This document shows, piece by piece, positions 6,280-9,349 of a stretch of 64,000 nucleotides of DNA. Below the pieces are notes generated by a model. It was not told where the DNA came from. It saw nothing but the letters and a program-made list of their open reading frames with translations, and searched no databases. The translations under genes and the position numbers were made by a program. Within the stretch, counting starts at the first letter, position 1, and each line of letters begins with the position of its first letter. Location: NCBI GenBank assembly GCA_033764445.1, contig JANRIZ010000160.1:3084-67083 (forward strand), in the 5' to 3' direction. The DNA is from Verrucomicrobiia bacterium. GTDB lineage: Bacteria > Verrucomicrobiota > Verrucomicrobiia > JAWXBN01.

Positions 6280-7176
6280 ATGTCCGCCACACTCATTGAT
6301 GGAAAAGCCATTGCCGAGGAGATCGTCTCCGAGGTGGCGGTCCGGGTGGCCGCGTTCAAACCCCTTGGAAAGGTCCCCGGCCTGGCGGTGGTGCTGGTGG
6401 GGGACCGTCCGGACTCGGCCCTGTATGTCCGCAAAAAAATCGAGATGTGCGAACGTCTCGGGATCCTTTCCAGAAAGGTGGAATTGCCCGTCCGCACGAC
6501 ACAGGAGGAACTGTTGCGGGTGGTGGGCGAATTGAATCTGGACCCGGCCATTCACGGGATTCTCGTCCAGTCCCCCCTTCCGCCGCCGATTGACGAACAG
6601 GCGGTCATCCGCGCGATCGATCCCCGAAAGGATGTGGATGGATTCCATCCGGTCAATGTGGGGAAATTCACCATCGGCGATCCCACCGGCCTGGTGCCGT
6701 GCACCCCGGCGGGGGTGATCGAACTCCTGCTGCGCAGCCGGGTGGAGCTCCCGGGGAGACGGGCCGTCGTTCTCGGGCGGAGCATGATCGTGGGAAAACC
6801 CGCCGCCCTGCTGTTGCTGGCGCAAAATGCGACGGTGACCATCTGCCATTCCAAAACGCGTGATCTTGCCGAGATCACCCGTCAGGCGGAAATCCTGGTC
6901 GTGGGCATCGGACGTCCTGAATTTGTGAGGGCCGGGATGGTCGGGGAGGGGGCGGTGGTCATTGATGTCGGCATCCATGTCCTTCCCGACGCCACCCGCA
7001 AAAGCGGCAAACGCACCGTCGGCGATGTCGCCTTCGACGAGGTTTCCGCAAAATGCGGGATGATCACCCCGGTCCCGGGCGGTGTGGGGCCGATGACCAT
7101 TGCGCTGTTGATGCGGAATACGGTCAAGGCATTCGCGGCGGCGGTGGGGGAAGGCCCCGGGACCGGCAATCCGTGA
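6280..7176 (+). CDS. folD: Bifunctional methylenetetrahydrofolate dehydrogenase/cyclohydrolase
   Basis: YVRKK, HGILVQSPLP, KDVDGFHP, PCTPAG, GRSMIVGKP, TPVPGGVGPMTIA. Confidence 0.97.
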   Translation: MSATLIDGKAIAEEIVSEVAVRVAAFKPLGKVPGLAVVLVGDRPDSALYVRKKIEMCERLGILSRKVELPVRTTQEELLRVVGELNLDPAIHGILVQSPLPPPIDEQAVIRAIDPRKDVDGFHPVNVGKFTIGDPTGLVPCTPAGVIELLLRSRVELPGRRAVVLGRSMIVGKPAALLLLAQNATVTICHSKTRDLAEITRQAEILVVGIGRPEFVRAGMVGEGAVVIDVGIHVLPDATRKSGKRTVGDVAFDEVSAKCGMITPVPGGVGPMTIALLMRNTVKAFAAAVGEGPGTGNP

Positions 7177-7203: not shown

Positions 7204-7959
7204 CTACAACAGGAGACGGATTCCGGCGAAAAAAAGAAGGATGTAGACGGTGGTGACAAACCATTTTTTGGAGACGCGGTCATTGATCCAGACACCCAGG
7301 CCGGTCCCCAGAAGCATGAAGGGGGCCATCCACAGACTCCCGTACAGCGAGGGAAGAGAGACCATTCCCTGATGAATGTAGATCGGGAGTTTGATGAGGT
7401 TGCCCAGGGCGAAGTAGGTGATATTGGTGCCGATGAACACCTGGGGGTCGAGATGTTGCGGCAGAAGGTACATGGCCATGACCGGTCCGCCTGCGTGGGC
7501 CAGTGTGGAGGTGTAACCCGCCAAGGCCCCGAGAATGGTCGCCATTCCCGGACCGGGTTTGAGGGTTTCCTCCATCTTCAGAATGCCCTCCCTGAGCAGT
7601 TGGATCAGGACAAAAAGCAGGCACAGTGCGCCCAGAATCCGTCTGAGAGTGGTGTTGTCGGTCATCTGCAGGGTCGCCGCTCCGATGAGGATCCCCGCCA
7701 GGGTGCCGGGGATGAGCCGCCGGATTTGGCGCCAGTCGACGCGGTGACGGTAGTGCCAGACGACAAAAACATCGGAAAAAATCATGATCGGCAGCAGCAG
7801 ACCCGCCGCCTCCCGTGCGGGCAGAAAAAGGGCCATCATCGGAACCGCCAGAATCCCCCCCGCCCCGCCGAATCCCGACCGGGAAACCCCGACAAAAGCC
7901 ACCACGGAGGCCATGAGCCAAAAGGAGTCGCCGTCCGGGAAGGGGAATCCGTTCATCAC
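7204..7959 (-). CDS. TauE/SafE (sulfite exporter/TSUP) family permease
   Basis: About 8 hydrophobic segments, GFGGAGGILAVP and AHAGGPVM glycine motifs; ATG overlaps the folB stop. Confidence 0.85.
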   Translation of the reverse strand: MMNGFPFPDGDSFWLMASVVAFVGVSRSGFGGAGGILAVPMMALFLPAREAAGLLLPIMIFSDVFVVWHYRHRVDWRQIRRLIPGTLAGILIGAATLQMTDNTTLRRILGALCLLFVLIQLLREGILKMEETLKPGPGMATILGALAGYTSTLAHAGGPVMAMYLLPQHLDPQVFIGTNITYFALGNLIKLPIYIHQGMVSLPSLYGSLWMAPFMLLGTGLGVWINDRVSKKWFVTTVYILLFFAGIRLLL

Positions 7960-8306
7960 GCCTTGCGGGAGACCTGGACAATCACACAGGCCGTGTCCGG
8001 GAGGATGAATTTTTTGAGACGGACCTCCACCTTTTTGACCGCATGCTTGGCCAGGACATTGTCGCAGATTTCCTGGGCAAAATGCTCCAGCAACCGGCGG
8101 GGCCGGGCCTGGGCGAGCATGTGGACGAGCTGATAGACCTGGGCGTAATCGATCGTATCGACCACGTCATCACTTTTGCTCGCACGCCTGAGGGAGAGAG
8201 TCAGCTCCACGGTCACCAGAAGTTTTTGGGCGTGGGCACGTTCCTCCTCGGGCACGCCGATGTGGGTCATGACCGCCATGTCACAAATGGTGATTTTATC
8301 GCTCAT
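7956..8306 (-). CDS. folB: Dihydroneopterin aldolase
   Basis: HIGVPEEER..AQ, DTIDYAQV, LLEHFAQEI, VEVRLKK; start moved to MSDKITI (8306). Confidence 0.92.
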   Translation of the reverse strand: MSDKITICDMAVMTHIGVPEEERAHAQKLLVTVELTLSLRRASKSDDVVDTIDYAQVYQLVHMLAQARPRRLLEHFAQEICDNVLAKHAVKKVEVRLKKFILPDTACVIVQVSRKA

Positions 8307-9349
8307 GGTTTCCGGTTTTTTTCCACACAATCGATGAGAATGCGGGTGGGGATGTTCAGATCCAGTTTTTTGGCCTCCGCCAGGGACAACCACCGGTACT
8401 TCAGACCCTCGTCGTTGAGGGAGACCTCCGTGGAGGTGGCGCGGCAGGTGTAGTTAAGCAGAATAAAGTGGGCCCGTTTGTAAAATTCCGGTGAATGAAT
8501 GCAGTCCTGCACCAGGGTGAAACGGATGTCGGAAATCTCCAGGTTCGTTTCCTCCCGCACCTCCCGGATCAGGGCCTCCACACTCGGCTCATCGGTCTTG
8601 ATTTTGCCGCCGGGGATGCCCCATTTGTTGCCCCACTTGTGGGTGTAAATCATCAGAACCTCGTCGTTTTCATTGAAGATCAGGGCGCCCACGGTGGGAA
8701 TCGGAAAATAATCCGGGAGGGAGGGATGGCTCTGGAGGTAGTGGCGCAGACCCTGGAGATTTTGAAAGAGGAGGTCCGGGTTGACCGACTTGAGTTTCTC
8801 CACCGCATCGTATCCGGTGAGCACCGCGACCCCCGTGATCCCCCCGTGGTGGGCGGTTTCGATGTCATGCATCATGTCCCCGACGAACATCGTTTCCCGG
8901 GGGTTGAGATCGTTTTCGGCCATGATTTCGTGGATTTTGGCCGCCTTGTCGAGAATCTGGACGTAGGGACGTTCGAAGTAGTGGGCGATGTCGAGGCGTT
9001 TGGATTGAACCGCAAAATGTTCCCGATGGATGGTGCTCAGCAGGAAGACCCGCAATTTGTTTTCGCGGCAGAACTCCAGAAAGTCCCGGGCGTGGGGGAG
9101 CATCTGGATGTTTTCCTGCAGACAGTGAAAAGACCGGTGGTAATGGACCTCCAGCTCCACCATCGTGGCCTCGGGCAGATACTTTTCATAGAATTTCGGG
9201 AACGGCAGGAAGAATTTTTCCCGGAATTCATCCGCCGTCATGGTCGGACGGCTGTAATGCCTGAAAATCTCGTTGGTGGCGTCGAGGACCGGGCCGAAGT
9301 CGTCGACGAGAGTGCCGGACCAGTCGAGGATGATGTTGCGGTAGCGCAT
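8303..9349 (-). CDS. HAD-superfamily phosphatase fused to a C-terminal Nudix hydrolase
   Basis: HAD motif I ILDWSGTLVDD and motif IV FVGDMMHDI; Nudix box GGKIKTDEPSVEALIREVREETNL; TGA overlaps the folB ATG. Confidence 0.9.
   Translation of the reverse strand: MRYRNIILDWSGTLVDDFGPVLDATNEIFRHYSRPTMTADEFREKFFLPFPKFYEKYLPEATMVELEVHYHRSFHCLQENIQMLPHARDFLEFCRENKLRVFLLSTIHREHFAVQSKRLDIAHYFERPYVQILDKAAKIHEIMAENDLNPRETMFVGDMMHDIETAHHGGITGVAVLTGYDAVEKLKSVNPDLLFQNLQGLRHYLQSHPSLPDYFPIPTVGALIFNENDEVLMIYTHKWGNKWGIPGGKIKTDEPSVEALIREVREETNLEISDIRFTLVQDCIHSPEFYKRAHFILLNYTCRATSTEVSLNDEGLKYRWLSLAEAKKLDLNIPTRILIDCVEKNRKP

Follow-up and report, generated by a model that had tools for sequence, protein, structure and literature searches.

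A HAD-Nudix fusion coupled to folB, a candidate enzyme for both dephosphorylation steps of the folate pterin branch in Verrucomicrobiota

Among the reactions of the pterin branch of folate synthesis, the conversion of dihydroneopterin monophosphate into dihydroneopterin is the only one that has never been given a gene. In a 64,000-nucleotide stretch of DNA from a Verrucomicrobiia bacterium (contig JANRIZ010000160.1, positions 3,084 to 67,083; hereafter the window), we found a gene that joins a HAD domain to a Nudix domain and whose stop codon overlaps the start codon of folB, the gene for dihydroneopterin aldolase. We consider it probable, at roughly 65%, that the product of this HAD-Nudix gene is a module for the two successive dephosphorylations in the pterin branch, which would be co-translated with FolB. 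In the proposed route, FolE2, encoded elsewhere in the genome, would convert GTP into 7,8-dihydroneopterin triphosphate, from which the C-terminal Nudix domain would remove pyrophosphate in a reaction like that of FolQ and NudB. The N-terminal HAD domain would then release the last phosphate of the resulting 3′-monophosphate through an aspartyl-phosphate intermediate on Asp9, and FolB, translated from the same message in a coupled manner, would turn dihydroneopterin into 6-hydroxymethyl-dihydropterin for FolK and FolP.

The fusion gene (8303..9349, minus strand) was taken from the list of open reading frames and codes for 348 amino acids plus the stop, with Pfam matches to HAD_2 at residues 6-176 (E 8e-17) and to NUDIX at residues 218-332 (E 1.9e-20, 73.7 bits). 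Pfam, Foldseek and the conservation pattern of homologous domains place the N-terminal part (residues 1-207; 8729..9349, minus strand) in HAD subfamily IA, with a helical C1 cap, and the Nudix domain covers residues 217-348 (8306..8701, minus strand). An AlphaFold2 model built with 50 homologues, with a mean predicted local distance difference test (pLDDT) score of 94.9 and a predicted template modelling (pTM) score of 0.78, has both domains well folded and laid out as a Rossmannoid HAD core with its helical cap, a short linker and the Nudix domain. Motif I of the HAD domain, DWSGT (9311..9325, minus strand), contains the nucleophile Asp9 and has Ser11 at the site of the canonical general acid/base Asp, while motif IV, GDMMHD (8864..8881, minus strand), provides Gly157, Asp158, His161 and Asp162. 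The Nudix box GKIKTDEPSVEALIREVREETNL (8540..8608, minus strand) reads G248x5E254x7R262E263VxE266E267xNL, with all the catalytic Glu and Arg residues present and an Asn in place of the final consensus Gly. In an alignment of 50 sequences, E254 is invariant and R262, E263, E266 and E267 are conserved in at least 90%, so that by box and by fold this domain belongs to the Nudix hydrolases.

Immediately downstream lies folB (7956..8306, minus strand), which codes for 116 amino acids and scores 94.4 bits with the Pfam FolB model (PF02152; cut-off 31.8) and 84.3 bits with TIGR00525 (cut-off 72.15). Its motifs GVPEEER, DYAQ, LEHFAQE and LKKF, aligned by eye, presumably hold the Glu, Tyr, Glu and Lys that are catalytic in the Escherichia coli and Staphylococcus aureus enzymes. 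The two genes share the tetranucleotide ATGA (8303..8306, minus strand), in which the TGA of the HAD-Nudix gene (8303-8305) overlaps the ATG of folB (8304-8306), an arrangement that we read as translational coupling from the first gene to the second. A sequence-only reading of this DNA had already described the fusion with its intact Nudix box, the overlap with folB and a Ser where the usual DxD has its second Asp, and all three hold: both domains are recognised by Pfam, folB passes its own models, and D9-W-S11-G-T is read directly in the protein.

The assignment to folate synthesis draws on comparative genomics. In an adjacency check across genomes of the Planctomycetes-Verrucomicrobia-Chlamydiae (PVC) group, set beforehand, folB was found directly downstream and on the same strand in 10 of the 10 HAD-Nudix loci examined, which range from 31% to 100% identity. 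Eight of them are the window's own locus (L012) and the loci L001, L002 and L013-L017, whole-protein matches at 41-69% identity, and all eight have folB as the next gene. The other two, L046 (33%) and L047 (31%), are distant relatives on long metagenomic contigs with flanks wholly different from those of the window, and there folB overlaps the HAD-Nudix stop by 4 and 7 nucleotides, respectively. No neighbour except folB is common to the HAD-Nudix loci; that folB is retained across the whole range of 31-100% identity, amid changing flanks, indicates that the linkage is not due to chance. A stand-alone Nudix gene whose product is 57% identical to the Nudix domain of the window overlaps folB as well.

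An earlier scan of a genome collection with the single protein had recovered only 2 true relatives, the peptide patterns being too specific, and its other 9 matches were unrelated Nudix genes. The phylum was covered with whole-genome searches of 301 evenly drawn genomes, of which 33 carry a HAD of the DWSGT type; in 28 of these 33, FolB is either fused to the HAD or encoded next to it. The mere co-occurrence of this HAD subfamily with FolB was discarded as a test for lack of power, because FolB is near-universal in the phylum (277/301 genomes, including all 33 that bear the HAD) and its presence is uninformative.

Gene fusions provide a second kind of link. HMMER, run exhaustively against 1.84 billion representative proteins, and a word-indexed search together gave a set of 270 homologues, which were classed with the window's own three domains (HAD, Nudix and FolB). 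The HAD-Nudix architecture accounts for 167 of the 270, HAD-FolB for 16, the triple fusion HAD-Nudix-FolB for 7 and Nudix-FolB for 3, and the other 77 are single domains or fragments, plus one Nudix-Nudix protein. Examples of each fused architecture were confirmed by Pfam. One of the triple fusions is a Planctomycetota protein deposited just as “dihydroneopterin aldolase”, and the form found in Akkermansia is a HAD-FolB fusion, with clusters of up to 1743 member sequences that go by the names of “HAD hydrolase-like protein” or “HAD-IA family hydrolase”. The existence of HAD-FolB, Nudix-FolB and triple fusions indicates that each domain is tied to FolB independently of the other. The FolB-fused forms lie scattered over a tree built from 106 HAD domains, whose well-supported branches by themselves require HAD-FolB to have arisen at least 3 times and HAD-Nudix-FolB likewise at least 3 times; the 16 architecture changes counted on this tree are an upper bound, given that some “HAD-only” rows may be gene fragments.

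No orthologue of the window Nudix was found in the genomes with HAD-FolB fusions or stand-alone HADs, where the best matches reach E-values of 1e-4 to 1e-7. The occurrence of HAD-FolB in genomes lacking that orthologue indicates that the HAD-FolB pair is the core of the association, with the Nudix domain as a lineage-specific accessory; the HAD might in such cases start from the triphosphate. The proposal of the sequence-only reading that HAD-Nudix forms a FolB-coupled unit is in this way partly revised: the linkage itself is conserved, but FolB has the HAD domain as its core partner, and in some clades the Nudix domain is an accessory. Other partners appear too among the homologues (P0219, P0127), namely a 378-residue TP_methylase (tetrapyrrole methylase)-Nudix protein, with the same type of Nudix domain, and a 483-residue Smr-HAD-Nudix protein, a further partner of the HAD-Nudix type.

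The pathway context comes from the genome to which the window belongs, a Verrucomicrobiota assembly of 2.74 Mb in 178 contigs that is 89.6% complete. FolE2 (GTP cyclohydrolase IB), FolK and FolP are all present, and folB of the window is the only FolB-family gene, so that this single FolB, next to FolK and FolP, must supply the folate pathway. A type I FolE was not found, nor does any Nudix protein of the genome reach the NudB cut-off, two negative results that are provisional at this level of completeness. With FolE2 to make dihydroneopterin triphosphate, and FolK and FolP to consume hydroxymethyl-dihydropterin, only the two dephosphorylations are left without an enzyme. The genome encodes four other Nudix proteins, one RppH-like, one IDI/YfcD-like, one similar to NudE-type ADP-sugar hydrolases and one without assignment. 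The only other Nudix of the genome that is detectably similar to the folB-linked domain (E 4.9e-9) is a protein of 175 residues (C62:29484-30017, minus strand) without any NCBIfam equivalog match above cut-off. A second member of the DWSGT HAD subfamily was not found in this genome.

The HAD domain, which would carry out the step without a gene, was compared with 324 homologous HAD domains. The nucleophile Asp9 of motif I, Lys135 of motif III, and Gly157, Asp158 and Asp162 of motif IV are 100% conserved; Gly12 and Thr13 are kept in 99-100%, Trp10 in 99%, His161 in 98%, and the Ser/Thr105 of motif II in 323 of the 324 domains. The cap residues N26, F46, P49 and Y54 are conserved in 95-100%. The domain has the hallmarks of a canonical HAD in its motif I nucleophile and in motifs II-IV, but not in the general acid/base two residues after the nucleophile (Asp+2), a site that is occupied by Ser in 320 domains, Ala in 3 and Cys in 1. 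The invariance of the catalytic residues other than Asp+2 predicts an active enzyme, and the Ser is best read as a signature of the family (DWSGT ... GDMxHD) rather than as a mark of decay. Foldseek aligns the HAD part of the model with HAD-IA structures at template modelling (TM) scores of 0.78-0.87, Gph-like HADs and the BT2127 pyrophosphatase among them, and the nearest solved structures are COG0546 HADs without characterisation (best 2ah5, TM 0.87, 22% identity). A Ser at Asp+2 was found in none of these solved-structure neighbours by sequence search and Foldseek; 2ah5 and 2go7 have DLDGT as motif I in the alignments shown.

The canonical HAD phosphomonoesterase uses Asp+2 both to donate a proton to the departing alcohol and to activate the water molecule by which the aspartyl phosphate is hydrolysed. 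Known exceptions at this site are the P-type ATPases, with Thr, and phosphonatase, with Ala, and both rely on other devices. Several observations weigh against a two-step module for the pterin branch, and the first concerns precisely this chemistry: the Asp+2 general acid/base never occurs in the subfamily (0/324), so that a monoesterase would require a non-canonical acid/base substitute, and the textbook mechanism cannot apply unchanged. The others are genomic and phylogenetic. In 5 genomes, all of one family, the HAD stands apart from folB. About 88% of the FolB-containing genomes of the phylum do not have this HAD subfamily, and the final step is clearly carried out otherwise in most bacteria. 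In hidden Markov model comparisons the Nudix domain scores 32.6 bits with NudB and 39 bits with NudI, and is no nearer to the former than to the latter. The two-step conversion of dihydroneopterin triphosphate into dihydroneopterin, which had been put forward from the sequence, finds support in comparative genomics, but its HAD half cannot be taken over with the standard monoesterase mechanism.

A HAD working without the canonical Asp+2 may take its acid/base from His161, from a cap residue or from the substrate; alternatively, it may prefer anhydride-type leaving groups. The role of His161 as a replacement is one that we infer, and this residue may serve as such. A bolder reading, with the odds clearly against it, is that the DWSGT/GDMxHD subfamily would represent the first dedicated dihydroneopterin-phosphate phosphatase with a new HAD mechanism, and that it would strip all three phosphates alone wherever the Nudix is lacking. 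The lineages concerned would be Akkermansia, with its HAD-FolB fusions, and one family (f8) whose HADs stand alone, with the HAD as the primary enzyme and the Nudix as an add-on.

The missing acid/base also feeds another explanation, in which the HAD is a phosphoanhydride hydrolase and not a monoesterase, and the last phosphate is left to unspecific phosphatases. Such an enzyme could either take the gamma and beta phosphates off dihydroneopterin triphosphate or split the pyrophosphate that the Nudix domain sets free. Lacking Asp+2, it would handle only good leaving groups, in keeping with a Ser in 320 of the 324 domains; BT2127, an inorganic pyrophosphatase, is among the structural neighbours, and there is a weak match to PpaX; and in HAD-FolB lineages without a partner Nudix the HAD may need to begin at the triphosphate. 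Nevertheless, we consider this explanation unlikely. A pure scavenger of pyrophosphate leaves those same HAD-FolB fusions unexplained, and FolB takes a fully dephosphorylated substrate, so that the fusion is simplest if the HAD delivers that substrate. BT2127, moreover, itself keeps the Asp+2 residue, as the titles of its Asp13 mutant structure entries indicate.

The two-step module, which we continue to prefer, has counterparts among characterised enzymes on the Nudix side. The pyrophosphatase reaction is performed by FolQ, a Nudix protein, which is recorded as a fusion with FolB in Parachlamydia sp. UWE25, a PVC bacterium (PMC1971073, 2007). The Nudix step is of a known kind, as represented by FolQ and NudB, and the linkage of Nudix and FolB in the PVC group was already noted in 2007. 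FolQ of Lactococcus lactis (YlgG), NudB of E. coli and AtNUDT1 have in common with the window domain the Nudix fold and box, the linkage to folate genes and the proposed removal of pyrophosphate; in contrast to these characterised enzymes, only the window protein has an N-terminal HAD fused to its Nudix domain. By hidden Markov model the domain is not a NudB orthologue, as the cut-off of the NudB model NF006961 is not reached (32.6 bits against a cut-off of 103), and its closest solved folds are NudI (Foldseek TMt 0.75-0.86) and Ndx1 (TMt 0.88). Its proposed action on dihydroneopterin triphosphate is argued from genomic context, which is the same reasoning by which the FolQ of Lactococcus was identified.

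On the HAD side, the most similar precedent in terms of metabolic logic is found in riboflavin synthesis, where the phosphatases acting on 5-amino-6-ribitylamino-uracil phosphate are HADs, YigB and YbjI in E. coli and YcsE, YitU and YwtE in Bacillus subtilis. Like them, the window domain is a small HAD with a helical cap that is proposed to take one phosphate off a GTP-derived intermediate, in a step long called unspecific. The riboflavin HADs have the canonical DxD, are promiscuous and do not cluster with the genes of their pathway, whereas the present subfamily, with its DWSGT and GDMxHD signatures, is joined by coupling or fusion to the enzyme that acts next in the pathway. With the COG0546/Gph-like HADs of subfamily IA (Gph; SP0104, which is 2ah5; BT2127) it shares the fold, the cap type and motifs II-IV, but the Gph equivalogs are far from reached (NF009695, 44.9 bits against 225; TIGR01449, 34 against 180) and Asp+2 is never present. 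PhnX, the phosphonoacetaldehyde hydrolase, is a classical HAD with D-W-A-G-T as its motif I, and resembles the window domain in the Trp that follows the nucleophile and in the small, non-acidic residue at Asp+2. It differs from it in the score (TIGR01422, 25.9 bits against 220, from motif IV only), in the conserved cap Lys that the window subfamily does not have and in the phosphonate context, which is absent here. The likeness of DW(S/A)GT motifs had suggested a phosphonatase-like Schiff-base chemistry on a glycolaldehyde-phosphate product; no conserved Lys was found among cap positions 18-85, either in the 50-sequence alignment or in the 324 domains, and a cap without it makes such a mechanism unlikely. 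Membership in the NudB, Gph, PhnX, PpaX, MutT and NudI families was rejected, every score being far under the cut-off.

These scores also bear on the idea that both domains do generic house-cleaning, the Nudix on damaged or surplus nucleoside triphosphates and the HAD as a nucleotidase or a phosphatase of the phosphoglycolate type, with a meaningless position next to folB. Its appeal lies in the best NCBIfam matches, which are phosphoglycolate phosphatase, NudI and MutT models, in the nearest solved structures, which are uncharacterised COG0546 HADs, NudI and Ndx1, and in the absence of any further close HAD paralogue in the window genome. Nonetheless, no family-specific model reaches its cut-off, the linkage to folB persists from 100% to 31% identity while all other neighbours change, and each of the two domains has been independently fused to FolB in other lineages, a fusion that arose repeatedly; taken together, these facts make house-cleaning improbable.

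About as improbable is a role outside folate synthesis, whether in making neopterin or monapterin through an epimerase side-activity of the FolB family or as a non-catalytic HAD that binds pterins or regulates: the divergence of FolB in the HAD-linked lineages and the conserved aromatic cap residues F46, Y54 and F/Y53, which would fit pterin binding, speak for it, but the window FolB is the sole member of its family, stands alongside FolK and FolP, and passes the folB equivalog while falling below the FolX model of NCBIfam (46.3 bits against 152), and the invariance of the catalytic residues besides Asp+2 argues for catalysis.

The divergence of FolB can be seen in the Pfam E-values, which are 1e-15 to 1e-26 in the lineages with DWSGT HADs and 1e-28 to 1e-37 for most of the other FolB proteins listed in the phylum. 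By eye, the window FolB and one copy of the Akkermansia type have K(K/H)FILP in common where the catalytic Lys lies. There appears to be either a divergent FolB subgroup that co-evolved with its HAD partner or a purely phylogenetic pattern.

Two further arrangements of these domains were observed in relatives. A stand-alone DWSGT HAD (50% identical) abuts a Peptidase_C26/GATase gene that starts at the HAD stop (L048:4001-5370, and L049), and the pair lies opposite purF-purM-purH. The Peptidase_C26 family includes the gamma-glutamyl hydrolases, and this pair may offer another connection with folate or one-carbon metabolism. The second arrangement occurs in a single genus of the same class, which is low in GC and has genomes of 2.2-2.4 Mb: FolB carries a fused N-terminal cpYpsA SLOG domain (PF12694, E 2.9e-53), and the HAD of DWSGT type is a separate gene next to a LOG-like one (PF03641) (L053:1456-2367, minus strand, likewise L055-L057; L024:1495-3199). 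The genomes of this genus have no orthologue of the folB-linked Nudix, which the SLOG domain might replace. As a general partner of FolB, cpYpsA was discarded, given that it occurs in 43 of the 301 phylum genomes and is fused to FolB in one genus only.

Of the other neighbours in the window, the gene that follows folB codes for a TauE/TSUP membrane protein (7204..7959, minus strand; Pfam TauE, E 2.7e-40), with a start codon that overlaps the stop of folB (TGATG). Co-transcription with folB is probable here, but the gene lies outside the conserved module; no TauE gene was found beside folB in any of the related loci compared. Beyond it, folD (6280..7176, plus strand), identified by the Pfam THF_DHG_CYH domains and the NCBIfam FolD models, serves as context only: the earlier reading had placed it about 0.8 kb from folB on the other strand, and it is indeed convergent, 780 bp from the folB stop with the TauE/TSUP gene in between. 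A promoter and terminator scan gave nothing exceeding the shuffled expectation.

Historically, the release of the last phosphate from dihydroneopterin monophosphate has been drawn as the work of a “non-specific phosphatase” (PMC1971073, 2007; PMC4161248, 2014), and a review of 2022 still shows it as an unnamed “phosphatase (Pase)” (PMC9544542), while a reconstruction of the gut microbiome from 2019 listed FolQ variants only. Our search, whose coverage of the literature is incomplete, found no paper in which this step is assigned to a HAD enzyme. If our proposal is true, a dedicated enzyme coupled to FolB would fill this hole of the pathway for the Verrucomicrobiota and Planctomycetota, including the Akkermansia of the gut, and thousands of proteins annotated as “HAD hydrolase-like protein” or “phosphoglycolate phosphatase” would be corrected. 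It would also improve the prediction of vitamin B9 synthesis in microbiomes and offer a defined part for the engineering of folate pathways. For the enzymology of the HAD family, the invariant loss of the acid/base residue in this subfamily makes a useful case.

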